Positions 2,676 through 21,138 of a DNA stretch of 64,000 nucleotides are shown piece by piece (the first letter of the stretch is position 1; each line of letters starts with the position of its first letter). The DNA comes from Vampirovibrio sp. (lineage in GTDB: Bacteria; Cyanobacteriota; Vampirovibrionia; Vampirovibrionales; JAJTHC01): positions 76,783 to 140,782 of the forward strand of contig JACEUU010000002.1 of the NCBI GenBank assembly GCA_024998755.1, written 5' to 3'. The notes under the pieces were generated by a model, which did no database searches, had not been told where the DNA came from, and was given only the letters and a program-made list of their open reading frames with translations. The position numbers and the translations under genes are program-made.

Positions 2676-3398
2676 ATGAATATCATTAAAACATTCACTT
2701 GGTTTCTTAAAGCAACAGCCATTGGTAGCTTCACGTTAGCCTTATTACTTATTGTGGTGGCTTATCGTCCTGAACCGCTAGAAGCCAATGCTCAAGCATG
2801 GCTCAAGCAATCTTCTCTTGGGCTTATTTCTCAGGAAGAACACGCATCAAACAAAACGGCTTCAAAGCCCACAGAAGATAATTGGGTTTTCGCTTCCATT
2901 GAACGCCTAAAAGGCTGGATGGAAAGTTTGCCAACAGCCATTCCCTCTGAAACGGATAAATCCGCTGTTGTGTTAAGCGTTCCTACTGCAACTGGGGTTA
3001 CCCACGCCGTAGTACCGATGGATTTGCAACCTAAAGCTTTATTTGTTACGGCAAACATTAATAATCGGCAAGATGGTAACTTTATTTTAGATACTGGTGC
3101 TACCTATATGTCTATTTCTAAAGAAATGGCGGAAGAATTGGGGTTGGATTTAACCCGCACTGAAATGGTGCCAATCACCACGGCTAACGGAAAGATTGAA
3201 GTACCGAAGGTGGTTTTGAAATCCGTCAAAGTCAATGGGTTAGAAGCCAAAAATGTGGAAGCGACCGTCATGAATTTTAAAAAAGATGCGTCATTTGCTG
3301 GGTTGTTGGGGTTAAGTTTTATTAACCAGTTTAAATTGACCATTGACCCCAATAAAGGGCATTTAATGTTTGAACCGTTGAAAACGTCTCAACGATAA
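2676..3398 (+). CDS. Retropepsin-like (clan AA, TIGR02281-type) aspartic protease with an N-terminal transmembrane segment.
   Basis: N-terminal hydrophobic helix, then the D-T-G-A active-site motif (FILDTGATYMSIS). Size is ~240 aa. Confidence 0.55.
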   Translation: MNIIKTFTWFLKATAIGSFTLALLLIVVAYRPEPLEANAQAWLKQSSLGLISQEEHASNKTASKPTEDNWVFASIERLKGWMESLPTAIPSETDKSAVVLSVPTATGVTHAVVPMDLQPKALFVTANINNRQDGNFILDTGATYMSISKEMAEELGLDLTRTEMVPITTANGKIEVPKVVLKSVKVNGLEAKNVEATVMNFKKDASFAGLLGLSFINQFKLTIDPNKGHLMFEPLKTSQR

Positions 3399-4690: not shown

Positions 4691-4728
4691 ACTTTAAGAA
4701 GAATGAGTCATAAACTTTTAAAAACTCT

Positions 4729-6702
4729 TTATGCGTGGGTTGAAAACGTGGTGCTAGCTGAATGCTGTTTGGCAACAGGATTAATAAATAACTTGCCATT
4801 TCTGGGGTATAACGGAATTTTTCCTAACCGCAATAATGAAGGTAATTGGTTAGGCACAGGCTCATTGGGTTGTTTTTCTTGCAATTTTTTCTTAATGGCT
4901 TCAGCCACAATTTCGTTTTTAATAGCTTCTTTATCTACATTGGGCTTTAAGCGTTCAGGTATTGCTTCTCCAGAAAAATGACTAGCAGCCCAGTGTTGTA
5001 ATTTAGGCGAAGCCACCCCTAAAATGGCATAACTAACCACTAATGAACCGACTAAAGCAAAGGCTTTAGCCCCCATGCCTTTGTTAATTATTTTCGTTAC
5101 TTGGGCTTGGTCTTCGTACTGTGCCAGTTGGTTTAGTTTATGGAAGACGCCTTCCACTGTTTTGAAATTATCTAAAATGCCTTGTTTTGGGTTATTAAAC
5201 CCAAAGAAGGTTTTCACATGGTTGCTAAAACCTTTGACCGGCTCGTTTTTAATATCTGCCGCTTGGTTGAGGGGCTTTGAAATATCTTGCCCTAAAATTC
5301 TTTTTTCGTGGAACGGATTCAGATGCTCTAGCTTAAAGTTTTCATGCCAAACGGGTAATGTGCCATTGGCTATCAGTGTATCTATAATGACGTTTTCGCC
5401 TTTTTTGTAGGGCGTTTTTGCCATGTAGGTTTGAATGGCTTCTGCCACTTGGTCTTTTTTATTTAGCAGTACTTTAGCGTAATAGTTTTCATTGGGTTCA
5501 ATGGTGAATTTAGCGTGTTCTAACACATCTTGAGTCATACCCTTTGCCCATGAGGGTATTGGGGTGTTAATAGCATTTTGTTGAACCCTTTTCTCCGCTT
5601 CAGCACTTTGCAAGTGGGCTAAATCACCTAACTTAAGAGCATTGAGGCTTTCAATGTATGATTTTCTGAAATTTTGATTGGGCATGCCATAGTTTTGCCG
5701 TAAACTGGCAACGGCATCAAAGGAAAGTTCGCTAATGGGGGTGGCTTTCCCAAAGGTTTGCGATTCAAAAATGGTCTTTTTTAGGGCGTCATTCAGTAGC
5801 TGAGACCCAAAGTACACCATAAACACCAATATGGCTTCGTTTACTGCCCAACTTAATCTATCATAATTGCCTTCACTTTTCGTTAGTCTTCCGCCTGTAA
5901 TAAAGCCATCTACACCTAAATTGGTGAATGCAGGGTGGGTGTTTAAGAAGTCTACCGCTGCAATGGCATTGGTGGCTAAATCGGCTCCTTTTCTAGGGGC
6001 TGGGTTAGCGGTTGTGTTCTTCTTCTCTTCTTTTGTTGCTTTGGTGGTGTAGGTATTCGGTTCTTCGCTGGCATCTAAGGCAAACAGGCTAGGTTGCCAC
6101 TGTTTGGCTATATGTTGATAGAGTGCTTCTCGCTTGGCGTCGGACTTATTATGCGTCCGATGGTGTGCAAATTCCTGTAGTTTAACGCCAACCAAGTAGG
6201 AAGGTAAAATAACGGAAAGACCAATACCCACGGCTTGGGCAATTTTTCTGGTACTGGGGGGTATTTTGTCAAAACTTTTGCCGAGTGCTTCAAACCGTTG
6301 ATTGAGTTGCTTTTGCAGAACGGGTATATCTGCAAATTTTGATTGGCTGGTTTGTTTGATTGTTTGAAGCAAGCTTTTTTGTTCGGGCGAACCATCGGCA
6401 TTAATAAAGGGAAGCACGTTGGTTTGGTGTAATGCCCCTTCATACAGGTGTTTTAGTAAGAAAGAACCACCGCCCCAAATAAAGGCAGTACCCCACATAA
6501 TCAAGCTCATTTCCTGACCAAATTCAGGCGATTTTTGCTTGGCTTCGCTAATCATCCCAAAGTTTTGAAGGCTATCACGCACAATAAGCCCTGCTGGGTG
6601 GTTGGGGTTATCTAACGCAGCGGCAGCAGAAATAGCAGGCTTTGAAAAAGCCCAGTTTGCTAGTTGTGTTCCGCTGTTTGCTAGTGTAGAAACCATGTTC
6701 AT
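4729..6702 (-). CDS. Large hypothetical protein (~657 aa), possibly membrane-associated or an effector-like protein.
   Basis: Long ORF. The probable start is the ATGAACATG at 6702; the ORF track extends to 6765. No recognisable catalytic motifs. Confidence 0.45.
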   Translation of the reverse strand: MNMVSTLANSGTQLANWAFSKPAISAAAALDNPNHPAGLIVRDSLQNFGMISEAKQKSPEFGQEMSLIMWGTAFIWGGGSFLLKHLYEGALHQTNVLPFINADGSPEQKSLLQTIKQTSQSKFADIPVLQKQLNQRFEALGKSFDKIPPSTRKIAQAVGIGLSVILPSYLVGVKLQEFAHHRTHNKSDAKREALYQHIAKQWQPSLFALDASEEPNTYTTKATKEEKKNTTANPAPRKGADLATNAIAAVDFLNTHPAFTNLGVDGFITGGRLTKSEGNYDRLSWAVNEAILVFMVYFGSQLLNDALKKTIFESQTFGKATPISELSFDAVASLRQNYGMPNQNFRKSYIESLNALKLGDLAHLQSAEAEKRVQQNAINTPIPSWAKGMTQDVLEHAKFTIEPNENYYAKVLLNKKDQVAEAIQTYMAKTPYKKGENVIIDTLIANGTLPVWHENFKLEHLNPFHEKRILGQDISKPLNQAADIKNEPVKGFSNHVKTFFGFNNPKQGILDNFKTVEGVFHKLNQLAQYEDQAQVTKIINKGMGAKAFALVGSLVVSYAILGVASPKLQHWAASHFSGEAIPERLKPNVDKEAIKNEIVAEAIKKKLQEKQPNEPVPNQLPSLLRLGKIPLYPRNGKLFINPVAKQHSASTTFSTHA

Positions 6703-7234
6703 TGTGGATAAAATAACCTTGTTACAGTTGAAAAAGCTTAGACGATGATAGAACAACCCCCCCATTTAATCCCCTTGCTTTATGCTGGTTCTTCAGTAAC
6801 TGAAAAGAACCGGCATCAAAAAGAAAGGGTTCGGGGAAACCGCTACCTAGCTTTGTAACTAAACACTTGGATATGAAGAAATTAAGAGATGAAAAATAGG
6901 TGGTAACAGCAATGGGTGATTGATTATACTGAGAAAATAGGTGGTTAGAAAAGCCGTAGATCAATGAAAAGTGGGTTATTGAATTGCTGTTAGCGTCGTT
7001 TTTTTACTGGTTAATTCCCTATACTCTAGCATTGTTTGAAGCTAGGTAGGGCATTGTTCGTCGTTTTGATTGGATATTATTCATTAAAAAGCAAAACATA
7101 ATAAGTGAAAAACCTTCATTTGTAAAATGGTGTCTAATCGACACTTTTTAATTGTTACTTAGTAACTTACCATGCGAATAAAACGATTTCAAGCTTTTTT
7201 TGTGCTAGGCTTTTAATTAAGATTTTACCCTTTC

Positions 7235-7380
7235 ATACCATTTTCAAATTGGAATAGCGTTAGATGGATACTAGGCACTGTCAAGTAAAAAACCGCAGGC
7301 GTACACAGACGACCATTGAGGATTTTTTGCTTGACGGTAACAACGTAGACGCTGACGATAGTTCTATTTAAAATTGGTAT
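7235..7380. repeat. MITE-like element (family 1, copy A), ~146 bp with ~17-bp terminal inverted repeats (ataccattttcaaat.. / ..atttaaaattggtat) and an internal 13-bp-stem hairpin.
   Basis: About 90% identical to 37585-37731. It sits immediately 5' of the pentapeptide-repeat gene. Confidence 0.6.
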
Positions 7381-7406
7381 CAGTTGCTTTGGAGTTTTTT
7401 CCTCTT

Positions 7407-8018
7407 ATGTCTACAAACCCCATGTCGAATGCTCAAGTATTTACCCCCGAAGCGTTGGCTAATTTACCGTTGAAAGACCAGTTGTTTCGGTTGATTTTAG
7501 AACAACCGGATGGGGTTACCCGCTTTAATGCGTGGCGACAATCTACTGGGTTTCATGTGTTAGATTTATCGGAGCTTGATTTTACGGGCTGTAATCTTTC
7601 GGGTATTAATTTTTCTAATTGCAATTTGCTCAATTGCCAGTTTGAAGAAACCTTGTTGCATGAAGCTAAATTGGTTTTTGCGGTGTTGACGGGGTCGTTT
7701 TGTTTTAATGCTCAATTTTTTCAGGCTTCTATGGAAGAGGCTGATTTTAAGAATTGTGATTTAACAGGGGCTATTTTAACGGGGGTAGATGCGACGGAAG
7801 CCAGTTTTGAAGGGGCTACCTTGGTTGATGTTCAGGCTCAAGATGCGGACTTTACCTTGGCAACGTTTAAAAATTCAACGGTTCGGGATGTTGATTTTAC
7901 GGGGGCTATTTTGAAGCAGGCAAATTTCAAGGAAGCTACCTGCGTTGAATATTTGCAACTAGAAACCGCCATCATGGATGATACTACCCAATGGCCCGCA
8001 GGGTTTATTGCTCGGTAA
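7407..8018 (+). CDS. Pentapeptide-repeat protein.
   Basis: Tandem A(D/N)LxG-type pentapeptides (CNLSGINFSNCNLLNCQFEET...ADFKNCDLTGAILTGVDATEASFEGATL...). GGAG lies 12 nt upstream of the ATG at 7407; the track's TTG at 7374 lies inside the MITE. Confidence 0.65.
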   Translation: MSTNPMSNAQVFTPEALANLPLKDQLFRLILEQPDGVTRFNAWRQSTGFHVLDLSELDFTGCNLSGINFSNCNLLNCQFEETLLHEAKLVFAVLTGSFCFNAQFFQASMEEADFKNCDLTGAILTGVDATEASFEGATLVDVQAQDADFTLATFKNSTVRDVDFTGAILKQANFKEATCVEYLQLETAIMDDTTQWPAGFIAR

Positions 8019-8252
8019 AAGTGGGTTATGAAACTAATCGGTGTAAATTCATGTGAACGATAGAATCAAATCCTAACTGTCTCATACCAATGCACACTTT
8101 CGGAATGCTCGTAAAGATTGACCGAAGGTTGTCTTGTTCATGCCATGCTTTTTTTGTACAACGTCCCACGCAATCGCACCTTGAGACTCTGCCAGTTTAT
8201 CGAACCCGGTAGTCATGTGGGGTTATCTCATCAACTTGAATAGCAAAGGGAA

Positions 8253-9842
8253 CTAGGTGATGCTTTTTTCATAGCTGTGTAGGCTATGAACGCCCCCTTC
8301 AATGTTGGCGGCAATGCTACGCCGCTCAAACCGAAGTTCCCCACTATGCAGGGTTTCATGCAGTTGAGGTATGGATTGTATACCCAAATCTTGCAAGCCA
8401 TGCTTCATTCCCTGAATAATATAAGGCAAATACTGACGTAACGACCCTTTATCCATTACCGAACCCGTTACCCCTTGAGCCACCAAAATTTTCGATTGTT
8501 CACCAAAATACCGAACGCTAGACCCTTTGGTCATGGCTTCTTGCGAACCCATTCCTCTGTACTTCTTCAACCGAATGCCATCTTTGTAGAAGTATTCACC
8601 TGGAGCTTCAGCCGTACCAGCTAACAATGAACCCACCATCACGCAAGAGGCCCCAACGGCTAACGCCTTGGTTATTTGCCCCATGTTGGCAATACCACCA
8701 TCTGCAATAACCGGAATGCCAAACTGGCTAGCATACTTGGCTACATTATAAACGGCTGTTGCTTGCGGACGCCCAACGGCGGTTACTTCCTGCGTGGTGC
8801 AGATTGAGCCAACGCCCATGCCAACCCGTAACCCATCTACCCCAGCTTGAATTAGGTGATGAGCTTGCAGTTTGGTAACAATGTTACCGCCAATAATTTG
8901 TAATTGTGGGTGTGCTACTTTTAAGCGTTTAACCATGTTAATTTGAAAGGTGCTATCGCCTTGAGAAGAATCTATCACCAATACATCAACGCCTGCTTTC
9001 ACTAAAGCGTTGGCTCGTTCCCAGTCAGATTCTCTGGTACCAACAGCCGCCCCAACCCGAAGTCGGTCTTGGTCGTCTTTGGTGGCTTGCGGATAGTTTT
9101 GACTTTTCAGCAAATCGTTTCTTGAAATCAGTGCAACCAATTCGCCGTTGGCATTAACAATAGGTAGCTTGCCTTTTTTGCTAGCCTGCAATAAATGAAA
9201 CGCCTCACTAAGTGAAGAGCTTTCGTTGGCGGTAATAAGGTCTGTGGTCATTACTGCGTGAAGTGGGGTTTGCCTATCGGTTACAAAGTCAATATCTCTG
9301 TTAGTAACCATGCCTAGCAGTTTACCGCCCATTTTGCCTGTATCGGTAATGGGTACACTACTAAAGCCGTTGTTTTGCTTCATAATATCCATATCTGCAA
9401 TGGTATGATGAGACGTTAACACTTCAGGGTCTGTAATAAAGCCATTTTTGAAGCGTTTCACTTTGCGTACTTCAGCCACTTGTTCTTCAATGGTATTGTT
9501 ATAATGAATGAAGCCTAAGCCCCCTAGCAGAGCCATGTGTATTGCCATGGTGCTTTCAGTAACCGTATCCATAGGCGAACTTACTATAGGTATTGCCAAG
9601 GTTAGGTTGCGGGTTAATTTACTATTGAGTTTTACATCATTCACCCCAAAATCAATATGCCTTGGGTGCAGAATTAAGTCGTTATAAGTAAGCCCTTCAC
9701 CTTGGTTGAAAATGGTTTCGGCTGTGAAGCCATCGTCAAACGAAAAGGCATCGCAATGAAGCTTTTCTACAGGAAGGGCGGTATTAAAAGGGGTGTTATT
9801 AGGCATTGTGAGGGTTGGGTTTTCAGTTGAAACAAGTGGCAT
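8253..9842 (-). CDS. guaB: Inosine-5'-monophosphate dehydrogenase, eukaryote-type sequence, with CBS domains.
   Basis: Resembles animal/fungal IMPDH along its whole length (GLTYND..ILP, KVKR/KFxxGFITDP, [12 protein letters not shown]-terminus), with the catalytic GSICxT loop. The N-terminus carries ~30 extra residues; an alternative start is at 9806. Confidence 0.85.
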
Positions 9843-10040
9843 AGGGACAAATAAAATCCTAAGATATGAAAAAAGAAAGCGAAAAGTGGTGGAGCCATCG
9901 TCAAGAAAAGTGGGTGGATAATGGTTTTAAATGACTAAGCCTATTAGCTAACAGAACAAGATACAATAATAACATATCATTAGCTTATTTCAAAGTATAT
10001 CATCTAAAAAAAATATGGCTATACCTTTACAGCTTAACTT

Positions 10041-10847
10041 TTAAATGCCATTATTTTGAATAAATTTAAGTAAGTCTGGCAACGAAGCAGAGGAATTACT
10101 GGTAACATTGTAACTATTGGCTAGCCCACCGCCCAAACCTAAGGCTTGAGCCTTTAATACATCATTTACCGAAACCCCTTGTTGCTGACGCGGCTGGTTT
10201 AGCGGTTGAACTTGTATTTGCCCTGTTTGAAACGGCATATTGGTGCCCAGCGGAGACCCTGCGGGAAATTGTGCTAAGGCGGTATTATTAGCTGTATCTG
10301 CAGCGGTATAAAAGGGTAAAATACTTTGTAGCCCCATAAAATTGAGTGCTTCTGGTGGGAAGTTTGAAAAATGAGGAATAACCGTTCCGCCTTGGATGGT
10401 GTTGACTAAATCAACAGGAATGGTGAGGTTTTTACCAAAATTTGGCGAAAGTACTTCGTTAAACAGGTTGGCTGAACGCCCTAAATAATCCAAGGCATTA
10501 TCTGTACCCGCATTATACAGCTTCGGGGCGATAAGTTGTTCGGTTAAGCCTGTGTGTTCAAAGGGTTTGGTGGCGTCTTGAAGATGGTTGCCCATTTTAG
10601 TGAGCCTTACAGGTGAAAAGAACGAACTAGAGCGAAGAAAACTGCTTTCAACATCATGGGTATAATTGTTGTTAAAGGCTATTTGTTGTTGCCATTGTGG
10701 AATATTGGTTGGAATTTTGCTGTTACCACGGCTAAACGTATCTTCTAGCCCTGTTAGCCACCCCATCCGTAAATTACCGAAGCCATTGGCTCCGTTAAGC
10801 CCTGCTCCGCCTGTGCCAAACCCTAAATTACCGCCTACAATGCCCAT
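10041..10847 (-). CDS. Hypothetical Gly/Asn/Gln-rich protein.
   Basis: ORF only; low-complexity N-terminus (GGNLGFGTGGAGLNGANGFGNL). Confidence 0.35.
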   Translation of the reverse strand: MGIVGGNLGFGTGGAGLNGANGFGNLRMGWLTGLEDTFSRGNSKIPTNIPQWQQQIAFNNNYTHDVESSFLRSSSFFSPVRLTKMGNHLQDATKPFEHTGLTEQLIAPKLYNAGTDNALDYLGRSANLFNEVLSPNFGKNLTIPVDLVNTIQGGTVIPHFSNFPPEALNFMGLQSILPFYTAADTANNTALAQFPAGSPLGTNMPFQTGQIQVQPLNQPRQQQGVSVNDVLKAQALGLGGGLANSYNVTSNSSASLPDLLKFIQNNGI

Positions 10848-10932
10848 GGTCTTTCCCTTTACTAGCTTTGCTACTGTAGGGGGTTTCGACTGATAGTGGG
10901 GTTGACCTTAGGTTTGTAACAGCTTTGTTGCA

Positions 10933-11646
10933 TTACCCTCGTTCTTGTAGCACCCCTTGAATAGCCAACACATCCTTGACGGTGGTAATGGCTTGCCCTT
11001 GTTGACGCAATTTTTCAACCAACGCAAACAAAATAGCGGCAGACATCCGCACATCTGCTTCAGCCCGGTGCGGATTGTTATTGTGGTAGCCGCATTGGGT
11101 GGCTACTACAATACCTTCATAGCTGGGTAAGCCGGGCATTACTTTTTGGGCTAACACCTTGGTGCAAAACGCTTTGCTGATATCAATGCGTTGTTCTAGC
11201 CCAACTAGCCCGCATTCTAGGCATTTTTCCCGTAAGAATTGAATATCAAATGAAACGTTATGCCCTACCAATAGCGGAGCAGGCCCCATAAAGCTGATTA
11301 AATCATTGAGCACCATCATCAGGGGCGGTGCGTTTTCGACCATTTCGTTGGAAATACCGGTTAGGCTTTCCACTTCATAAGGAATGGGTTCTTTGGGCTG
11401 CACGAGGGTTGAAAAAATATCGATGGCTTGACCGTTTACAAACTGGATGGCGGTTATTTCCGTAATGCTATTACGCTTGGCGTTAAGACCAGTTGTTTCT
11501 AAATCTATTACCGTGAATGTGGCGGTATCAAAGGCTTGTGCCATTAAGGTTTTTGAAGAAGGGGCAGCTTCAGATTCTTGGCTAAATAACGAGGAAAAAA
11601 GCGATGTTTGTAGGGTTTCAGATGCGTTAAGTAGGCTACTGTTCAT
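10933..11646 (-). CDS. DEDDh 3'-5' exonuclease (DnaQ/DNA polymerase III epsilon-like).
   Basis: Exo I motif VIDLETTGL, Exo II HNVSFDIQFL and Exo III HRAEADV. Confidence 0.65.
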   Translation of the reverse strand: MNSSLLNASETLQTSLFSSLFSQESEAAPSSKTLMAQAFDTATFTVIDLETTGLNAKRNSITEITAIQFVNGQAIDIFSTLVQPKEPIPYEVESLTGISNEMVENAPPLMMVLNDLISFMGPAPLLVGHNVSFDIQFLREKCLECGLVGLEQRIDISKAFCTKVLAQKVMPGLPSYEGIVVATQCGYHNNNPHRAEADVRMSAAILFALVEKLRQQGQAITTVKDVLAIQGVLQERG

Positions 11647-12431
11647 GAGGTGTTAATGCCTTTAATGGGGGGGGCTGTTATTTTACAGCGGGGAAGGATA
11701 TAAAAAAATAAAGGAGCAATCCGACTTGCCTGTGGAATAGTGTTTCCATTGGGCTTGGGGTGTTGCTCCTGTTTAGTTTCTAATGCAATGTTATCTCGTT
11801 TGTTTTCTTGTTTGTATTTTACAGTGTAAAAGCTTTTAGTCTATAAAACTAGGTAAGTTCACACGACCCTATTCAATTGTATCAATTAATGTTCTAGAAT
11901 AAGTGCCAGTATTCATAAAATACTCGGTTTTAACGCTACACAGTAGGCTTTTGTTTCAACTATTTCACATTCCTCCCTTCATCTGATGAACAACTAGCAG
12001 ATTAACATTGTAATCTGGCAACAGATTTTAAAGGTACTAACACACGAATAACAAAGGTCATAAAATTCCTAAAAATTAGTGTTCACTCAACACCAACAGC
12101 AGGAAGAATTACATCTTACCGAGACCATGCCCCCAATGCAAGTACGAGCTTTATTGTTCACACAAAAATTGTTCAATAATATGTGTATTATTTCGTTTCT
12201 TTGCTTGTAAAAAATTGGTATATAACGCTATTTTCACTTACTTTTAAAAAACAGGCAATTTCTTTGGGCAGATTGTTTTTATTAATACACAAGCTGGTTG
12301 CAACCAAGCAAACCCGCTTACCTCCCGCAAAAATAGCATTGTAACAATTTAGTCAACTGGTCTGTCTAAGCATTTAGACAAAAATGAAAAAACGAAAATC
12401 TTCGATTTGGTCGTCGAATTTTTTCACCATA

Positions 12432-12468
12432 CCGTCGAAGTTTGGTCGCTTCGACGGTTTTTTATTTT
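12432..12468 (+). terminator. Hairpin plus T-tract (ccgtcgaag-tttggtcg-cttcgacgg-tttttt), part of direct-repeat module B.
   Basis: Perfect 9-bp stem followed by a T-run. A near-identical copy lies at 14942-14978. Confidence 0.45.
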
Positions 12469-12554
12469 GAGATGGTTGGGTTTAATTCTCGGTACATTTA
12501 ACGTATACTAATAATTGCCGTATTTACTCTCTGTTGTTAGAAAAGATAATCCTT

Positions 12555-13775
12555 ATGACCACTTCTACCTTGCTTAAACCTAACACCGCTTATACCTTAA
12601 GCCAATTAGCTACCCTCATGCCAGATGCTACCGTTCGAGGCAATGCCTCGTTACAGGTTACGTCATTGGTGCACCCTCGGTTTGCTAAAACGCCGACTGA
12701 AATGATTTACATCGCCACAGAATCTGCCTTTGCTGCCTTGGAAAAAGGCGTGGCTAAAGTGGGCTTGCTTGAAGAAAGCTTACCCATTCCTGAAGCCTTG
12801 TTGCAGAATAACCAGTTGGGATTTTTGGTTGTAAAACGGGGCAAAGTAGGGCTGGCTCATGCCTTAAAAATATTTGAAAAACCGGCATTTATTACTTCAG
12901 GCATTCACCCAACGGCTCAAGTAGATGAGTCTGCAACAGTCGGTGAAAACGTTACCATCGGGGCTTTTTGCGTGGTGGGTGAAAATGCGGTTATTGGGGC
13001 GGGTAGCATTTTACATCCTCATGTGTTGGTGGGGGCTAAGGTTACCATGGGCGAAAATTGCTTGCTTCATAAGGGCGTTTTTATTGGTGATTGCTCCCAG
13101 CTGGGTAACAGGGTCATCATCCAACCCAACGCCGTTATTGGGGCAGATGGCTTTAGTTATGTAACCCCTGAGGTTGCCAAACATGAAAAATCGACCGATG
13201 AAGCTAAAACCGTTAGCGAAGTAACGGATTTGATTCGGATTAATTCCGTAGGTTGGGTCGTGCTGGAAGATGATGTCGAAGTGGGGGCTTGCACCACCAT
13301 TGACCGTGGCACCTTGGCGGAAACCCGTGTTAAAAAAGGCACTAAAATTGATAACTTGGTGATGATTGGTCATAACAATACGATTGGTAAACATTGTTTA
13401 ATTGTGTCCCAAGTGGGTTTGGCGGGTAGCTGCCATATTGGCGATGGCGTTGTTATAGCAGGGCAAGCAGGCTTGGCAGACCATTTAACTATTGGCGATA
13501 ACGCCATTATTATGGCACGCTCTGCGGTAATGAGGGATGTTGAACCTAGCCAAGTGGTGGTGGGTATGCCTGCTATGCCGACTCGTCAGTATATGGAACA
13601 AATTTTGTATATGGGTAAATTGAAAGAAATGGCGAAAGCCTTTAAATCCCTTCAAAAGGAAATGCTAGCCATGAAGGAAAAGGCCAGCCAGTTTGAAGCC
13701 TTTTTTGCCTCTGTTGCTTCGACAGATGGGGCTGACGCTGATGCAGATGACGCTGCACTGAAAAAGGGTGTTTAA
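12555..13775 (+). CDS. lpxD: UDP-3-O-acylglucosamine N-acyltransferase with an unusual ~60-aa acidic/helical C-terminal extension.
   Basis: Left-handed beta-helix hexapeptide repeats and an LpxD-like N-terminal domain. An alternative TTG start is at 12534. Confidence 0.75.
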
Positions 13776-14630
13776 ATGTCTCTGTCATCGGTTATTACTC
13801 TTTCGGGGGTTGGCTTAATTTCTGGTAAACCGGTTAGTGTTCGATTAGAACAAGGTTTGCAGGGGCAGGGTGTTCGGTTTGTGTTTGCTTCAACTGGGGC
13901 TATTTTGCCTGCTTCTGCTGATTTTATTGTGGATACTCAACGGGGCGTAACCCTCATGCACCCTGAAACCAAGCAATTGCTGTCTATTGTGGAACATTTT
14001 TTGGCTGCCGTTTCCTTCAGTGGTTTTCACGATGTTACCGCTACCATTGAAGGCGATGCCCCAGAATTGCCGTTGTTAGATGGGTCTGCGTTGCCTTGGT
14101 ATCAAGCGATTGTTTCCCAGTGGGGCAAGCCGGAACCGTCAGTTAATAAGCCACTGTATACGCTGAATAAGCCAGTTTTTATGCAGCGTTCTACCCTTAA
14201 AACGGCGATGTATGCGTTGCCATCGGATAAATTTTCTCTGACTTATACGTTGGATTATGCTCATGCGGGCTTTCAACGGGATTGGGCAACTTGGCAGGGC
14301 AGGGCGGATAGGGTGGTTTCTGTAGACCAATTGCTTTCGGCTCAAACGTTTGGGTTGGTGGCGGAATTGCCGGTTTTACAGGCGAAGGGGTTGGCTTTGG
14401 GTGTAACGTTGGAAAATACGTTGGGGTTATGTGAAGATGGGTTTGGCTATACTCGGGCGTTGAAGTTTCCGAAAGAACCATTTTTTCATAAGATGTTGGA
14501 TTTAGTGGGCGATTTTCATCTTTGTGGCTTGCCGGTGGAATGCCTTCAAATGGCGATAGTGGCGGTGAATGCGGGGCATACTAGCCATGTGGCGTTTGCC
14601 AAACAGTTGAAACAGCAGTTAGAACAATAA
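13776..14630 (+). CDS. lpxC: UDP-3-O-acyl-N-acetylglucosamine deacetylase.
   Basis: Matches E. coli LpxC motifs (TVEHxLAA, LLDGSA, HKMLDxVGD, HxSH). Its start is translationally coupled to the lpxD stop (TAAATG). Confidence 0.8.
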   Translation: MSLSSVITLSGVGLISGKPVSVRLEQGLQGQGVRFVFASTGAILPASADFIVDTQRGVTLMHPETKQLLSIVEHFLAAVSFSGFHDVTATIEGDAPELPLLDGSALPWYQAIVSQWGKPEPSVNKPLYTLNKPVFMQRSTLKTAMYALPSDKFSLTYTLDYAHAGFQRDWATWQGRADRVVSVDQLLSAQTFGLVAELPVLQAKGLALGVTLENTLGLCEDGFGYTRALKFPKEPFFHKMLDLVGDFHLCGLPVECLQMAIVAVNAGHTSHVAFAKQLKQQLEQ

Positions 14631-14941
14631 AACTTATCTAAAAATATAAAAACAAGCAATTTATTGGTATAGATTGTTTTTATTACTATGTGAGCGATAC
14701 ACACGCCGCCCACAAAAACCGCTTCCTTGCTACACAGTCTGTTTTGGGTTTACCCACCAGCCGTGGTTATCTGGTTTTTGATGAACTACTGGTCGGCACT
14801 TTTGAAGAAGCGTTTACTGGAAGACGAACGCTTTTTCATTCCTTTCTATTTCGCTACACGCCCCTGCCATTTGTTAAATTTACCTGAAAAAAGAGAGAGA
14901 GAAAAAAAGTGCCAATTTGGTCTTTGGTCTTTTTTTCCATA

Positions 14942-14978
14942 CCGTCGAAGTTGGTCGCTTCGGCGGTTTTATTTTTTG
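14942..14978 (+). terminator. Hairpin plus T-tract (repeat module B'), downstream of lpxC and abutting the purQ 3' end.
   Basis: ccgtcgaagttggtcgcttcggcggttttatttttt. Confidence 0.45.
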
Positions 14979-14982
14979 AATA

Positions 14983-15732
14983 TTATACAGCGACGGCTTG
15001 TTTTTTCGCCAAACACGCTTGGGCTAACGATTCAAACACCAATCGTCCCAGCCCTGTGCGTTGAACCGTCTCGTCTGCCCACCAGTTGCGTTCAGGGTGT
15101 GGCATTAAGCCTAGAACATTGCCGGCTTCATTACAAATACCCGCAATCCCATTAGCAGACCCATTAACTGTAGCCCCCGCCTCATACCGAAAAACCACTT
15201 GTCCGTTGCCTTCTAGTTGAGCTAGGGTTTCTTCATCGGCGGTGTAGCAGCCTTCCCCGTGTGCAATGGGGAAATCCACCAGTTGATTTTTTTGATACGC
15301 ACTGGTAAAGGGGGCTTTCACCTGCTCCACCCGAAGTTGCGTGTGTTGTTCACACAAAAATTGCTGATGATGATTTGCCACCAACGCACCGGGTAACAGA
15401 CCGCTTTCGGTTAAAACTTGAAACCCATTGCAAATGCCTAATACGGGAAAACCATTGTTGGCAAAGGCTTTAATTCTTCCCATCAGTGGCGAACGGTTTG
15501 CCATAGCACCGCACCGCAAATAATCGCCATAGCTAAACCCACCGGGAATAATTACGGCATCCACCAAGGTTTCTAACGGTTGCGGATTTTCCTCATCTTG
15601 CCAAAGAAAAACGGTAGTGGCGTTCATTACATTACGCACGGCTTCTGCACAATCTTCATCGCAATTGCTTCCTAAAAACCGAGCAATCCCGATGGTTAAA
15701 GCCTGTTTGTTGATAGTCATCATCATCATCAT
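14983..15732 (-). CDS. purQ: Phosphoribosylformylglycinamidine synthase subunit PurQ (glutaminase).
   Basis: GGFSYGDYLRCGAMA...ICNGFQ..HGEG class-I glutamine amidotransferase motifs. It starts with five consecutive ATG codons. Confidence 0.8.
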   Translation of the reverse strand: MMMMMTINKQALTIGIARFLGSNCDEDCAEAVRNVMNATTVFLWQDEENPQPLETLVDAVIIPGGFSYGDYLRCGAMANRSPLMGRIKAFANNGFPVLGICNGFQVLTESGLLPGALVANHHQQFLCEQHTQLRVEQVKAPFTSAYQKNQLVDFPIAHGEGCYTADEETLAQLEGNGQVVFRYEAGATVNGSANGIAGICNEAGNVLGLMPHPERNWWADETVQRTGLGRLVFESLAQACLAKKQAVAV

Positions 15733-15750
15733 TTTGGGTCGATTCCTATT

Positions 15751-16800
15751 CTAAGCTTGAAGCGATTCGAGTGATTCAAGGCAATAGGTTTCAATCACCA
15801 AGTTGGCTAGTAAACTATCACACATTTGTAGGCAATAGGCTTGGGCTTGCACTCGGTTGGTGGCTTGTAGCTGAATTTCAAAGCGTTTGCCTGCTTTTAC
15901 TCGTTGTACGGTGGGAAAACCGTGGGTTTGCAATGCTTCCGTAATGGCTCGGCTTTCAGGATGCAACACGTTTGGTTTGTATTGCACTTGCACGGTAGCA
16001 AAATACGTTACCAATGGCGATTCTACCGTTGCTTCTTGCGTTTTCAAATTAATAGGGCTAGCGGAAAGCACTTGGGTTAAGCGGTTTTCCACCGTGCTGT
16101 AGGCGGTGTTAATATCCCCTAAATCTAACCGAAAAACGTCTTTATCTAGCACTTGCCCTGTGGTAGCATCTCTTAAGCGGAAGTTGTCAGGGCTCATTTC
16201 ATCAGCTATTTTTAACTGACCGTTGGCGTTTAACCCCATTTCCAACTTGTAGTCTGCACAATCAATGTTGCAGGCGGAAAATAAGGCTAAAAACGAATCA
16301 TTCACGGCTAGGGCGATATGCTTAATTTGGTCGATGGTTACCCCTGTTGGCAACAAGCCGAGTGTGTTGATGGCGTCGTCTGGCAAGGCGGGGTCGTTTA
16401 ATTCGTCGCTTTTGTAGAAGAATTCGACGATGGGTTGTTTTAGTTTTTCACCTTCTTTAAACAGAGGGATTCTTTTGGGCAGGCTACCGAGGGCGATGTT
16501 GCGTACCACAATTTCGATGGGCAACATGGCGAGTGCTTCGTATACTAGCTGGTTGGGTTCAGCCCCTTTGCCAATGTAGCAGGTGGCTAGCCCTTGGGCT
16601 TCTAGGTAGGTGAAGAGTTGGGCGGTAATGTTGGCGTTCAATGCCCCTTTGCCAGCAATTTCTTCGCTTTTTTGGGCGTTGAAGGCGGTGGCTCTGTTTT
16701 TGAAGGTGGCTAATAGCTGGTTGGCTTGCCCTGCTATGGGCGATAAAATTTTGGTTTTGCCTTCACGGCTGGGGGCGGTTGTTATTGTGGCGGTGGTCAT
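15751..16800 (-). CDS. purC-purS: Fused SAICAR synthetase (PurC) and FGAM synthase PurS subunit.
   Basis: N-terminal ~250 aa align to PurC (EGKTK, MLPIEIVVRNIALGSLPKR, DYKLEMGL, SPDNFRLRD). The C-terminal ~85 aa align to PurS (VTYFATVQVQYKPNVLHPES...CDSLLANLVIETY). There is no stop between the two parts, and purQ follows directly. Confidence 0.7.
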   Translation of the reverse strand: MTTATITTAPSREGKTKILSPIAGQANQLLATFKNRATAFNAQKSEEIAGKGALNANITAQLFTYLEAQGLATCYIGKGAEPNQLVYEALAMLPIEIVVRNIALGSLPKRIPLFKEGEKLKQPIVEFFYKSDELNDPALPDDAINTLGLLPTGVTIDQIKHIALAVNDSFLALFSACNIDCADYKLEMGLNANGQLKIADEMSPDNFRLRDATTGQVLDKDVFRLDLGDINTAYSTVENRLTQVLSASPINLKTQEATVESPLVTYFATVQVQYKPNVLHPESRAITEALQTHGFPTVQRVKAGKRFEIQLQATNRVQAQAYCLQMCDSLLANLVIETYCLESLESLQA

Positions 16801-16899
16801 TGTGTGGGGTCTTTCTGTGGCGTGGCGGTTGGTTTTATCCATTGAATGCCGTTATTATACCGCTAATGTATTTTGGTTTCAATCGATGGGTTTTGGGCG

Positions 16900-17217
16900 T
16901 TGCGGTTTTCAACCGCCGTTGCCCCCTGCTTCGCACTCAACCCCGCCTTTCCCTCACCCTAGCCCTCTCCCAGAGGGAGAGGGGACGGTAAACCTAGGTA
17001 AACGGCGGGTTTTCGCCCTATGGGTGGGGCAACTAACGCTTTATTGCCCCCTCTCCCGCTGGGAGAGGGCTGGGGTGAGGGTTTTTAGAAACGGGAGGGT
17101 TTGAAACCCTTCCCTACACAATAGCCTAAATCTCGTCATGTTGAGCGTAGTCGAAACATCCCCCCAGACGCTAAGGAGATTCCTCGGCTACGCTCGGAAT
17201 GACAAAACACGCTATTT
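16900..17217. repeat. Cluster of family-2 GC-rich palindromic repeats, including the gtcatgttgagcg...gaatgacaaaacacgctattt module.
   Basis: ccctctccc-aga-gggagaggg and ccctctcccgctgggagagggctggggtgagggttttt match 2437-2478. The terminal module matches 28697-28773 and 54476-54567. Confidence 0.5.
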
Positions 17218-17314
17218 CTACTTGAATCCGCCTATAAAAATACCGATTAATCGGTTGTTATCTTTGTAATCCTAGTTAAAAGTTCTTGTAATTCTGCTTG
17301 ACGGTTCGACATTA

Positions 17315-18476
17315 TGAAGTTACGGAAAAAGGGCAAGGTAAAATAGAAGGGACATTATTCCACCTCTCATAGGATACCCCACCCCCATGACTACCTTTGC
17401 CGACATCCAAATTCAACAAGCCACCCCCACTCACAAATTCCTAGAGGAAATGAACCAAACCCTACCATGGCAACTATTTGAAACCATCCTCAAAACACAC
17501 ATCCACCACAAACCCAACGGCAGACCACCCTACAAACGCCTACTACTGCTCAAAATGAACCTCCTCAAAATATGGTTCAATCTCTCCTATGAACAAACCG
17601 AATTTCAATGCCACGACAGACTCTCCTTCCGAAAGTTTCTCGGCTTCTCCTTAGAATCCCCCATCCCTGAAGCCACGACACTCGAAAACTTCCAACACGA
17701 ACTGCAAAACACCCCAGCCCAAGAAGCCCTTTTCTTAGCCTTAGACACCTTCTTCCAAGAGAACAACCTCATTCTTAAAGAAGGCAACTTGGTAGATGCC
17801 ACCTTTATTAAAGCCAATAGCAAACAGAGAAAAAAGCCTGAAGACCAGAGCGACCCTGATGCCACTTATGGCTACAAAGGCTTTGGTTACAGTGCCACGG
17901 TTAATGTGGATGCTAAAAGCAAGTTGATTCGCAAGGTGGTTGTTACTGGTGCCAATGTGCATGACAGTCAGAGTTTACTGCCTGTACTGGTGGGCGATGA
18001 GCAGACTGTTGGTGCGGATAGTGGGTATGTGGGTAAGGAGAAGGATTTGAAGGCGTTGGGGATACAGCCGAGGATTATTAAGCGTCGTGTTCGGGGTAAG
18101 CAGCATGAACCAACGCCTGAGTTGACGGCTTCGCAGAAGCGGTTTAATGGGTTGGTTTCTAAGGTTCGGGCAAGAGTGGAGCATGTGTTTGCGGGTTGGA
18201 AGACGGTGTTTAAGAAGGTTCGTGTGTCTTGTCGTGGGTTAGTGCGTGTTTCTGCGGAGATTTTGGGCTTGGCATTTGGGTATAATTGTCGTCGGTATGG
18301 TTTTTTGGTGAGGAGGGGGGTAGGTTTTAGTGGATTCTTGTATGGTTTTTAGGTAATTATGATCCGAAAAGAGTGGAAACAAGGGGTATTGTTCTGTTTT
18401 TTGAGCATTTTTGGTTGAATTTTATTAAAAAACACTCACTACTCCCACCTGCACACCCTTATTCCGTAACTTCATT
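17315..18476 (+). mobile_element. IS5-family insertion sequence, copy 1 (~1.16 kb) with TIR tgaagttacgg...ccgtaacttca.
   Basis: The whole transposase is duplicated at 19961-21122 (inverted) and again at 63446 onward. The flanks tta|IS|tta suggest a 3-bp target-site duplication. Confidence 0.8.
17387..18352 (+). CDS. IS5-family DDE transposase (321 aa).
   Basis: DDE_Tnp_1-like organisation. Identical protein copies are at 20085-21050 (-) and 63518 onward (+). Confidence 0.8.
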   Translation: MTTFADIQIQQATPTHKFLEEMNQTLPWQLFETILKTHIHHKPNGRPPYKRLLLLKMNLLKIWFNLSYEQTEFQCHDRLSFRKFLGFSLESPIPEATTLENFQHELQNTPAQEALFLALDTFFQENNLILKEGNLVDATFIKANSKQRKKPEDQSDPDATYGYKGFGYSATVNVDAKSKLIRKVVVTGANVHDSQSLLPVLVGDEQTVGADSGYVGKEKDLKALGIQPRIIKRRVRGKQHEPTPELTASQKRFNGLVSKVRARVEHVFAGWKTVFKKVRVSCRGLVRVSAEILGLAFGYNCRRYGFLVRRGVGFSGFLYGF

Positions 18477-19960: not shown

Positions 19961-21122
19961 AATGAAGTTACGGAATAAGGGTGTGCAGGTGGGAGTAGTG
20001 AGTGTTTTTTAATAAAATTCAACCAAAAATGCTCAAAAAACAGAACAATACCCCTTGTTTCCACTCTTTTCGGATCATAATTACCTAAAAACCATACAAG
20101 AATCCACTAAAACCTACCCCCCTCCTCACCAAAAAACCATACCGACGACAATTATACCCAAATGCCAAGCCCAAAATCTCCGCAGAAACACGCACTAACC
20201 CACGACAAGACACACGAACCTTCTTAAACACCGTCTTCCAACCCGCAAACACATGCTCCACTCTTGCCCGAACCTTAGAAACCAACCCATTAAACCGCTT
20301 CTGCGAAGCCGTCAACTCAGGCGTTGGTTCATGCTGCTTACCCCGAACACGACGCTTAATAATCCTCGGCTGTATCCCCAACGCCTTCAAATCCTTCTCC
20401 TTACCCACATACCCACTATCCGCACCAACAGTCTGCTCATCGCCCACCAGTACAGGCAGTAAACTCTGACTGTCATGCACATTGGCACCAGTAACAACCA
20501 CCTTGCGAATCAACTTGCTTTTAGCATCCACATTAACCGTGGCACTGTAACCAAAGCCTTTGTAGCCATAAGTGGCATCAGGGTCGCTCTGGTCTTCAGG
20601 CTTTTTTCTCTGTTTGCTATTGGCTTTAATAAAGGTGGCATCTACCAAGTTGCCTTCTTTAAGAATGAGGTTGTTCTCTTGGAAGAAGGTGTCTAAGGCT
20701 AAGAAAAGGGCTTCTTGGGCTGGGGTGTTTTGCAGTTCGTGTTGGAAGTTTTCGAGTGTCGTGGCTTCAGGGATGGGGGATTCTAAGGAGAAGCCGAGAA
20801 ACTTTCGGAAGGAGAGTCTGTCGTGGCATTGAAATTCGGTTTGTTCATAGGAGAGATTGAACCATATTTTGAGGAGGTTCATTTTGAGCAGTAGTAGGCG
20901 TTTGTAGGGTGGTCTGCCGTTGGGTTTGTGGTGGATGTGTGTTTTGAGGATGGTTTCAAATAGTTGCCATGGTAGGGTTTGGTTCATTTCCTCTAGGAAT
21001 TTGTGAGTGGGGGTGGCTTGTTGAATTTGGATGTCGGCAAAGGTAGTCATGGGGGTGGGGTATCCTATGAGAGGTGGAATAATGTCCCTTCTATTTTACC
21101 TTGCCCTTTTTCCGTAACTTCA
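19961..21122 (-). mobile_element. IS5-family insertion sequence, copy 2, inverted relative to copy 1.
   Basis: Reverse complement of copy 1 end to end. Its flanking triplets do not match each other (ata vs ttt). Confidence 0.8.
20085..21050 (-). CDS. IS5-family DDE transposase (copy 2).
   Basis: Identical 321-aa product. Confidence 0.8.
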   Translation of the reverse strand: MTTFADIQIQQATPTHKFLEEMNQTLPWQLFETILKTHIHHKPNGRPPYKRLLLLKMNLLKIWFNLSYEQTEFQCHDRLSFRKFLGFSLESPIPEATTLENFQHELQNTPAQEALFLALDTFFQENNLILKEGNLVDATFIKANSKQRKKPEDQSDPDATYGYKGFGYSATVNVDAKSKLIRKVVVTGANVHDSQSLLPVLVGDEQTVGADSGYVGKEKDLKALGIQPRIIKRRVRGKQHEPTPELTASQKRFNGLVSKVRARVEHVFAGWKTVFKKVRVSCRGLVRVSAEILGLAFGYNCRRYGFLVRRGVGFSGFLYGF

Positions 21123-21138
21123 TATAAGGAACTCAATG

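Follow-up and report, generated by a model that had tools for sequence, protein, structure and literature searches.

How a bacterium of the order Vampirovibrionales came to carry an IMP dehydrogenase (IMPDH) resembling those of animals and fungi is the question raised by a 64,000-nucleotide stretch of the Vampirovibrio sp. assembly GCA_024998755.1 (contig JACEUU010000002.1, positions 76,783 to 140,782), hereafter the window. The gene occupies 8253–9842 of the window on the minus strand, and an initial annotation, made from the letters alone, read it as a probable inter-domain horizontal gene transfer. The Vampirovibrionales are a non-photosynthetic sister lineage of the Cyanobacteria. Taken as a whole, the evidence makes it very probable that this is an intact, eukaryote-type housekeeping IMPDH, old and vertically inherited within the Vampirovibrionales, which goes back to an ancient exchange between eukaryotes and bacteria. 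The product is an ordinary IMP dehydrogenase whose function is not unusual, and near-identical proteins are already annotated as such.

An intact IMP dehydrogenase gene

8253–9842, minus strand: IMP dehydrogenase gene, eukaryote-type subfamily; 529 amino acids, ATG at 9842 (open reading frame list and translation, TIGR01302, PF00478)
14983–16842, minus strand: de novo purine genes, purC-purS fusion (15751–16842) and purQ (14983–15732), about 5 kb from the IMPDH gene (Pfam SAICAR_synt and PurS, GATase_5)

A single open reading frame (ORF) fills the interval exactly; a plus-strand reading was rejected, as its frame contains many stops. An alternative start at Met13 (9804–9806) would give the 517-residue form that is annotated for the near-identical protein MCS6266262.1 from a Vampirovibrio metagenome-assembled genome (MAG). 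The product matches TIGR01302 with 629.3 bits (cut-off 481.5) across model positions 1–450 of 450 and PF00478 with 458 bits across positions 1–345 of 345, and it includes a Pfam CBS match (57.9 bits, residues 196–247). Models for the paralogous enzymes GMP reductase, GuaB1 and GuaB3 all remain below their cut-offs: NF052358 scores 256.6 against 675, TIGR01303 238 against 562.75, TIGR01304 96.3 against 342.1, and TIGR01305 135.2 against 492.15. The gene has no intron remnants, and its intergenic region is intact and bacterial in style.

No other IMPDH-family gene lies within the 64-kb window, and the gene is presumably the housekeeping IMPDH of the organism and its only one. A housekeeping role fits with the de novo purine genes nearby and with the reported ability of Vampirovibrio chlorellavorus to synthesise its own nucleotides (PMC4451040).

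Affinity with eukaryotic IMPDHs

The initial annotation held that the product is closer to animal and fungal IMPDHs than to bacterial GuaB, and comparison with solved structures bears this out. Human IMPDH1 and IMPDH2 score 629–635 bits (IMPDH1 635) and the fungal enzymes 571–596, followed by the unnamed chains 8c53, 8c51, and 6rfu at about 506 bits, whereas the best typical bacterial structure, 4fxs, reaches only 372. Pairwise identity is 59% to the human and fungal enzymes, 63% to those of Dictyostelium and Phytophthora, 49% to a plant enzyme, and 42% to Escherichia coli GuaB; the alignment with human IMPDH1 covers residues 35–527. Every one of the eukaryote-like blocks that the annotation had quoted, including the C-terminus, is present in the 529-residue product.

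Phylogenetic analysis with eukaryotic and bacterial IMPDHs does not place the protein among typical GuaBs. The split between typical bacterial sequences and a group of eukaryotes plus Vampirovibrionales receives 100% neighbor-joining (NJ) bootstrap support in two data sets, and the maximum likelihood (ML) stem between the typical and eukaryote-type sequences is about 0.75 substitutions per site. Eleven conserved columns are common to eukaryotes and Vampirovibrionales against the typical type; none shows the opposite pattern. Judged by its sequence, then, the window IMPDH belongs to the eukaryote-type subfamily. Among the traits of that subfamily it has the KKGK motif, the Arg/Gln pair linked to mycophenolate, the eukaryote-type subsite for the NAD adenosine, and a long C-terminus.

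The positions on which this comparison turns are given below. A census of residues at these and related positions covered 12 eukaryotic, 33 Vampirovibrionales, 21 other eukaryote-type bacterial, and 19 typical sequences.

9093–9446, minus strand: Bateman (CBS-pair) domain inserted in the catalytic barrel, residues ~133–250 (Pfam CBS and alignment to the human IMPDH1 Bateman domain)
9198–9200, minus strand: Phe215 (human Asn198, Ashbya Asn200), the guanine-specifying position of site 3 (pairwise and multiple alignment)
9168–9179, minus strand: KKGK motif, residues 222–225 (sequence); R-I-E-K in typical bacterial enzymes
8826–8828, minus strand: Arg339 (human Arg322), mycophenolic-acid selectivity position in the eukaryote-type state (alignment and census)
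8790–8810, minus strand: active-site loop GSICTTQ with catalytic Cys348 (8799–8801; human Cys331) (alignment to human IMPDH)
8508–8513, minus strand: Arg444-Tyr445 (human Arg429-Tyr430), catalytic dyad of the mobile flap (alignment and census)
8475–8477, minus strand: Gln456 (human Gln441), second mycophenolic-acid selectivity position in the eukaryote-type state (alignment and census)
8265–8300, minus strand: C-terminal segment including Glu-Gly-Gly (human Glu500-Gly501-Gly502), residues 515–526; like eukaryotes, unlike typical bacterial C-termini

Residues required for catalysis are shared by all types. The catalytic Cys is invariant across all census groups, and the Arg-Tyr dyad, which we take from established IMPDH enzymology to activate water for hydrolysis of the covalent intermediate E-XMP*, is conserved in the window IMPDH and almost everywhere else, as is the Asp that binds the IMP ribose (Asp381; human Asp364). 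Several other positions separate the two types. The KKGK Gly is found in 10 of 12 eukaryotes, 32 of 33 Vampirovibrionales, and all 21 members of the other bacterial clade, with Glu in its place in 11 of 19 typical sequences. At the position of human Arg322, which we take to be one of two that determine mycophenolic-acid selectivity, Arg occurs in all eukaryote-type bacterial sequences and 11 of 12 eukaryotes, against Lys in 16 of 19 typical sequences; at the second, Gln441, every eukaryote-type sequence has Gln, against Glu in 17 of 19. The position of human Arg224 is Arg in 11 of 12 eukaryotes and in all eukaryote-type bacterial members, and is variable in the typical type. The Glu-Gly-Gly of the C-terminal 30 residues presumably supplies half of the monovalent-cation site of the neighboring subunit. 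Its Gly501 position is Gly in all eukaryote-type sequences and Ser in 17 of 19 typical ones, in keeping with the earlier remark that bacterial C-termini differ.

The third guanine-binding site of the Bateman domain departs in part from this pattern. The site 3 Asn is kept in 11 of 12 eukaryotes, 26 of 33 Vampirovibrionales, and all 21 members of the other bacterial clade; only the subclade of the window has Phe or Tyr instead, with Phe in the window IMPDH and its 90%-identical relative and Tyr in the next relatives. In these alignments Phe215 is a lineage-specific departure from the eukaryotic pattern. Two further site 3 residues, human Leu227 and Lys238, are kept as Leu244 and Lys255, and human Arg231 is replaced by Gln248.

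Genomic setting and the possibility of contamination

A eukaryotic gene joined to bacterial DNA by contamination or chimeric assembly would show such similarity to eukaryotic IMPDHs, and the similarity itself is all that speaks for this explanation. The genes of the window are bacterial throughout. They include LpxC, an LpxD-like hexapeptide acyltransferase, PurC-PurS, PurQ, an RNase T-family exonuclease, a pentapeptide-repeat protein, a bacterial-type prolyl-tRNA synthetase (ProRS) with editing domain, DnaJ, GrpE, an SLT transglycosylase, an HlyD/ABC exporter, UppP, and an AddB-like nuclease. The named best matches of the ProRS are to Melainabacteria, Vampirovibrionales, and Vampirovibrio chlorellavorus (58%). 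Further, three contigs from independent metagenome assemblies (JGI, ENA, and Logan) are collinear with window positions 4723–17122 at 97–98% nucleotide identity, a span of about 12 kb across both flanks of the IMPDH gene. Additionally, the relatives of the window IMPDH at 98% identity include a Vampirovibrio sp. MAG protein on a 696-kb contig. Because the same gene order recurs in three independent assemblies, contamination and chimerism can be excluded, with a residual probability that is practically negligible; the earlier statement that ordinary bacterial genes flank the locus and that contamination is not indicated is thereby confirmed.

Tests of recent acquisition

Taken plainly, the initial annotation implies that this genome recently acquired a eukaryotic gene by horizontal transfer. 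High similarity to eukaryotic IMPDH and the presence of insertion sequence (IS) copies 7.5 kb away could be taken to favor such an event. The composition of the gene is nevertheless native. Its GC content is 0.452 against a mean of 0.436 for the set of 51 window ORFs (z = 0.46), GC at third codon positions (GC3) is 0.426 against 0.396 (z = 0.50), and the log-likelihood of its codon choice has z = 0.05; all composition measures thus differ by at most half a standard deviation from those of the other 50 window ORFs. The lack of intron remnants and the bacterial-style intergenic region also count against a recent eukaryotic source, as does the fact that the closest eukaryotic sequence is just 63% identical.

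The IS copies themselves offer no vehicle for the gene. Two 1164-nt copies, 100% identical and inverted (17313–18476 and 19961–21124), each encode a 321-residue DDE_Tnp_1/DUF772 transposase (17387–18352, plus strand; 20085–21050, minus strand). They bracket 1484 nt that hold a 137-residue ORF without Pfam matches and a 116-residue Crp-like helix-turn-helix protein, and the whole looks like a composite transposon. Two syntenic contigs (L015 and L016) align with the window up to precisely 17313 and no further, so this IS insertion is specific to the strain of the window. The nearer copy does not bracket the IMPDH gene, and syntenic contigs without the IS still carry it; no mobile element, tRNA, or repeat lies next to or around the gene in the window. 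A eukaryote-type IMPDH is present, moreover, in every related locus recovered (59–98% identity), with orthologues across the Vampirovibrionales. Recent acquisition is accordingly very improbable.

Inheritance within the Vampirovibrionales

A scan of one genome per prokaryotic species recovered ten IMPDH loci at 59–90% identity, eight of them labeled Vampirovibrionales, Vampirovibrio, or Melainabacteria; many of these taxon labels come from the submitters of MAGs. Their flanking genes are all bacterial and include Obg, PEP carboxylase, a fumarase/aspartase-family gene, an amino-acid permease, and a GidA-family protein. In five loci the fumarase/aspartase-family gene is found upstream in divergent orientation, Obg adjoins the IMPDH gene in two (and lies about 10 kb away in the population of the window), and some subsets of loci share Obg together with PEP carboxylase.

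The window IMPDH groups with Vampirovibrio-like sequences at 97% bootstrap support. Identity among its relatives declines through 98, 90, 88, 87, 71, and 70 down to 63%, while for the housekeeping ProRS the corresponding series is 92, 84, 82, 81, 75, and 65 down to 56%. The two ladders run in parallel, as vertical descent predicts. We infer that the gene has been inherited vertically in the Vampirovibrionales since about the base of the order, and was not recently acquired.

The proposal of inter-domain transfer is therefore retained only in part. At some point in its past the subfamily must have crossed between domains, in an ancient event that is not specific to this genome; entry into this bacterium in particular is not supported, given the native codon usage and GC3 (z 0.05–0.50), the orthologues throughout the order, and the ProRS-like ladder, and the type is also found in other phyla.

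One locus in the set, L010 (DATNPJ010000030.1), is labeled as a Coleofasciculaceae cyanobacterium and carries a eukaryote-type IMPDH. Two of its neighboring genes cluster with those of Vampirovibrionales loci, namely the fumarase/aspartase-family gene (L004–L006 and L009) and the amino-acid permease (L005), and for this reason the contig was probably mis-binned into the MAG of an oxygenic cyanobacterium.

Occurrence in other bacterial phyla

A search with the IMPDH of the one locus labeled Planctomycetia as query returned a large set of bacterial proteins 63–67% identical to it, whose names include Leptospira sp. GIMC2001, Leptospiraceae, many Spirochaetota MAGs, Planctomycetota, and Hydrogenedentota. 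Leptospira sp. GIMC2001 is cultured, and its IMPDH (P0380) is encoded on a 4.03-Mb contig. These proteins are 58–61% identical to the window IMPDH and 55–63% identical to eukaryotic sequences, and they form a clan of their own (91–95% bootstrap). The named Planctomycetota vary in the KKGK motif, with KIGK in L008 and no KKGK in P0313, and keep the other signature residues. Since Vampirovibrionales, Leptospira, and others carry the type, the subfamily is not specific to eukaryotes. No description of a eukaryote-type IMPDH in Vampirovibrionales, Melainabacteria, Leptospira, or other phyla was found in the literature.

Representatives of intermediate clusters, 47–50% identical to the window IMPDH, were sought as the next outgroup. 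One of them, P0149, lies on an uninformative contig. Another, P0151 (L012, 6001–7440; 48% identity), is encoded on a 63.5-kb metagenome contig beside GMP synthase, a family-X DNA polymerase, a RING-finger protein, a YqaJ-like protein, and a P8_CR/DUF5901 protein; this contig looks like the genome of a giant virus with its own guanine-nucleotide pathway.

Age and direction of the exchange

Trees were inferred by ML with our own program, using an exchange matrix derived from BLOSUM62, empirical frequencies, four gamma categories (alpha 0.8), and a search by nearest-neighbor interchange (NNI) only. The data set comprised 35 taxa and 487 columns, and longer searches were run from several starting trees. 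Eukaryotes were thinly sampled, with 12 sequences, and the sampling included no kinetoplastid, Asgard, or chlamydial sequences. In the best tree (log-likelihood, lnL, -20618.9) the typical sequences stand apart from all others, the Spirochaetota/Planctomycetota clade branches next, and eukaryotes and Vampirovibrionales are interleaved. Constrained arrangements compare with it as follows, with p values from the Kishino–Hasegawa (KH) test.

Eukaryotes monophyletic: cost 3.0 lnL, KH p 0.44; they nest inside a Vampirovibrionales grade
Vampirovibrionales monophyletic: cost 6.0 lnL, KH p 0.36; they nest inside eukaryotes
Eukaryotes, Vampirovibrionales, and the other bacterial clade each monophyletic: cost 20.3 lnL, KH p 0.145
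Eukaryotes monophyletic and all eukaryote-type bacteria together: cost 31.7 lnL, KH p 0.087
Eukaryotes with the other bacterial clade: cost 19.5 lnL, KH p 0.16
Root inside eukaryotes: cost 15–16 lnL, KH p 0.12–0.14

None of these arrangements is rejected at the 5% level. NJ support is likewise low along the backbone: 0–2% for eukaryote monophyly, 0–10% for Vampirovibrionales monophyly, and mostly below 50 among eukaryotes, Vampirovibrionales, and the other bacterial clade. Column comparison found essentially no fixed differences between eukaryotes and Vampirovibrionales, and no column in which either group alone keeps the typical state. Identities are 59–69% within Vampirovibrionales, 57–65% between eukaryotic supergroups, and 59–67% between the two groups, a star-like pattern. 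Divergence within the Vampirovibrionales is thus as deep as that between eukaryotic supergroups, and it is reasonably supported that the exchange dates from around the time of the eukaryotic radiation. There is also reasonable support, on these sequence comparisons, for Vampirovibrionales as the closest sampled bacterial relatives of the eukaryotic IMPDHs.

With respect to direction, we lean slightly toward transfer from eukaryotes to bacteria, and this preference is tentative. On this account, an ancestor of the Vampirovibrionales exchanged its typical guaB for the IMPDH of a eukaryotic prey or host, and the type in Spirochaetota, Planctomycetota, and Hydrogenedentota reflects a separate, similar event with later spread among bacteria. 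The type is universal in the sampled eukaryotes and patchy in bacteria, and the typical type predominates across the sampled prokaryotic diversity. Unconstrained NJ and ML trees show paraphyletic eukaryotes with Vampirovibrionales interleaved, and Vampirovibrionales forced to be monophyletic nest among eukaryotes beside an amoebozoan-type group at their small cost in likelihood. The long stem is what change along the eukaryotic stem would be expected to leave. A predatory lifestyle would also provide opportunity, as the lineage includes an obligate predator of Chlorella (PMC4451040). However, placing the root of the subfamily inside eukaryotes is costly in the comparison above, the depth of Vampirovibrionales divergence demands an event about as old as the eukaryotic radiation, and the Vampirovibrionales share no derived states with any one eukaryotic group.

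The converse, that the type arose in bacteria and that a Vampirovibrionales-like or related donor passed it to the eukaryotic stem prior to the last eukaryotic common ancestor, is a serious possibility, if a somewhat less probable one. The window gene would then be native, and its eukaryotic appearance an artefact of naming. The best ML tree provides two successive bacterial outgroups, eukaryotes forced to be monophyletic nest within a paraphyletic Vampirovibrionales grade at a cost of just 3 lnL, and about 87% of the weight from resampling of estimated log-likelihoods (RELL) falls on candidate trees in which the other bacterial clade lies outside eukaryotes plus Vampirovibrionales. An independent 2026 preprint, further, places Chlamydiota as sister to the eukaryotic IMPDH clade. 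Against this stand the failure of the KH test to reject any alternative, the home-made ML implementation with its NNI search and 35 taxa that include neither Asgard archaea nor Chlamydiota, and the chance that the root is a long-branch artefact, given that NJ roots on the long plant branch. Among the cyanobacterial-lineage matches seen, moreover, the type is restricted to Vampirovibrionales.

Predicted mechanism, regulation, and drug sensitivity

By homology, the enzyme would oxidise IMP to XMP with NAD+, the committed step toward GMP, as a K+-activated tetramer or octamer. Cys348 would attack C2 of IMP and hydride would pass to NAD+, giving the covalent E-XMP*; the flap would then close, and Arg444 and Tyr445 would activate the water that releases XMP. 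The monovalent cation would sit between the Cys loop and the Glu-Gly-Gly C-terminus of the adjoining subunit. Adenine and guanine nucleotides would compete on the Bateman domain, with GTP or GDP causing compaction of the octamer and inhibition as in eukaryotes.

The GTP/GDP-inhibited eukaryotic IMPDHs have been defined by KKGK together with a non-canonical guanine site, the third of the Bateman domain (Buey et al. 2015, PMC4660370; also PMC9462843). Site 3 and KKGK are stated there to be exclusive to eukaryotic enzymes (PMC4660370), and inhibition of this kind is held to separate eukaryotic from bacterial IMPDHs (PMC9462843, PMC4660370). From its eukaryote-type features, the window IMPDH is predicted to be inhibited by GTP/GDP through the Bateman domain and to lack the typical bacterial regulation via the glutamate of the RIEK motif. 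Sensitivity to mycophenolic acid is also predicted, because both selectivity positions are in the eukaryotic state. Site 3 itself is probably altered in the subclade of the window, because its key Asn is replaced by Phe215. In Ashbya, the N200K mutant loses GTP/GDP inhibition, and the corresponding human residue, Asn198, is listed among retinopathy-associated positions (PMC4660370).

Several points weigh against the overall reading of an old, vertically inherited housekeeping enzyme of eukaryotic type. A typical guaB could lie elsewhere in the genome, as the check for a second copy covered the 64-kb window only. No biochemical data were found in the literature for any bacterial member of the eukaryote-type subfamily. 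Because Phe215 and Gln248 do not fit the regulatory pattern of eukaryotes, control by GTP/GDP may not follow the eukaryotic model. The window shows no synteny with the scanned loci L001–L010, even in the case of L001 with its 90%-identical IMPDH, so that vertical inheritance is argued from the gene tree, from composition, and from the ProRS-like ladder, and not from gene order across the order. Finally, the gene tree does not support monophyly of the Vampirovibrionales, as the low NJ bootstraps and the 6 lnL of the ML constraint indicate, which leaves room for more than one transfer.

At the level of sequence, the exclusivity of KKGK and site 3 to eukaryotes fails for Vampirovibrionales, Leptospira, other Spirochaetota, and Hydrogenedentota. 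Such bacteria may offer simple systems in which to study the GTP/GDP switch, and the subclade of the window presents a natural change from Asn to Phe or Tyr at a site 3 residue linked to retinopathy. Inhibitors aimed at the cofactor site of bacterial IMPDH would probably miss these bacteria, including the pathogen genus Leptospira; mycophenolic acid may act on eukaryote-type bacteria, Leptospira included, instead.

A more far-reaching scenario, which we consider rather unlikely, is that the GTP/GDP-inhibited, mycophenolate-sensitive IMPDH with its three-site Bateman switch arose in bacteria and that a Vampirovibrionales-like (melainabacterial) bacterium, or one closely related to it, passed it to the eukaryotic stem. 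If so, the Vampirovibrionales would be the closest living bacterial source of a core enzyme of eukaryotic nucleotide metabolism, and regulatory traits now ascribed to eukaryotes alone would have originated in bacteria, with Leptospira and Vampirovibrio as organisms in which to study them. The position of the Vampirovibrionales as closest sampled bacterial relatives of eukaryotic IMPDH gives a testable lead on bacterial contributions to eukaryotic metabolism; on the opposite reading, a lineage of predators on eukaryotes would have captured the gene long ago.

Other features of the window

9966–9993, minus strand: candidate sigma-70-type promoter, TTGAAA, 16 nt, TG-TATTAT; 10 of 12 positions matching, with the ATG about 125 nt downstream (weak evidence)

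Six promoter-like sites were found where 4.7 are expected by chance, and this candidate alone is not significant. An AGGA lies about 17 nt ahead of the IMPDH ATG at 9842. Next to the IMPDH gene on its upstream side, and likewise on the minus strand, is a 268-residue ORF (10041–10847), one of several large conserved ORFs without a Pfam family; the others are at 112–2271 (719 residues), 4729–6765 (678 residues), and 24362–25537 (391 residues). The first of these is part of a 1177-residue gene in contig L015. At 2676–3398 a 240-residue protein has a retropepsin-like aspartyl protease domain (gag-asp_proteas / Asp_protease_2) and is kept in the syntenic contigs.

In the purine cluster, purC-purS is one gene of 363 residues (SAICAR_synt and PurS) followed by purQ, an arrangement also kept in L015 and L016. 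ARAGORN calls a 101-nt tRNA-Ser(gct) at 17019–17119, where Rfam finds none. A G+C-rich, 88% complementary palindrome of 42 nt (16951–16992 / 17040–17081) coincides with the call, and the spot is probably a repeat hairpin, not a tRNA. The ProRS lies at 25693–27537, and among its Vampirovibrionales matches is a 56%-identical protein (P0481) deposited as Microcystis phage MaAM05 in a 274-kb record. This label echoes a published dispute over Vampirovibrio-like sequences and jumbo cyanophages with translation genes.

Comparison with known systems

Among characterized enzymes, human IMPDH1 and IMPDH2 and hamster IMPDH2 (7RER, 1JCN, 1B3O, 1JR1) resemble the window IMPDH at 59% identity over nearly the full length, with three short indels. 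The human enzyme shares with it the Cys loop, the Arg-Tyr dyad, the ribose Asp, the Glu-Gly-Gly cation site, Arg322 and Gln441, KKGK, and Leu227 and Lys238 of site 3. Unlike the human enzyme, the window IMPDH lacks the small metazoan insertions, has Phe215 for Asn198 and Gln248 for Arg231, and begins with 34 unrelated residues that vary even among close relatives; its host, too, is a bacterium. Ashbya gossypii IMPDH (4Z87/5MCP; 596 bits) is the model for GTP/GDP inhibition through three Bateman sites, and the window IMPDH has KKGK and most of the residues that define GTP/GDP-inhibited enzymes (PMC4660370). It differs in that the equivalent of Asn200 is Phe or Tyr in the subclade of the window.

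The IMPDHs of Leptospira and other Spirochaetota, Planctomycetota, and Hydrogenedentota (P0380, P0313, P0316) are alike in overall identity (58–61%), in signature residues and C-terminus, and in their location on large bacterial contigs. In the best trees they nevertheless form their own clan outside eukaryotes plus Vampirovibrionales, and all 21 keep the site 3 Asn. Typical GuaBs, such as those of E. coli (b2508), Vibrio cholerae (4FXS), and Pseudomonas aeruginosa (4DQW), share the fold, chemistry, domain order, and catalytic Cys, Arg-Tyr, and Asp at 42% identity. They differ in having RIEK, Lys and Glu at the mycophenolate positions, and Ser for Gly501; in addition, the loop of their first CBS motif is shorter, their flap contains two inserted residues, and their C-terminus is not the same.

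Cryptosporidium parvum and Tritrichomonas foetus are eukaryotes with bacterial-type IMPDHs, for which transfer from bacterium to parasite is well supported. They provide a precedent for replacement of the resident type across domains, in the direction opposite to the one slightly favored here, and the event behind the window gene is far older. Horizontal gene transfer in Cryptosporidium is the subject of a review (PMC4777385). The annotation of the protein as an IMPDH and the transfer of IMPDHs from bacteria to eukaryotes are thus already known.

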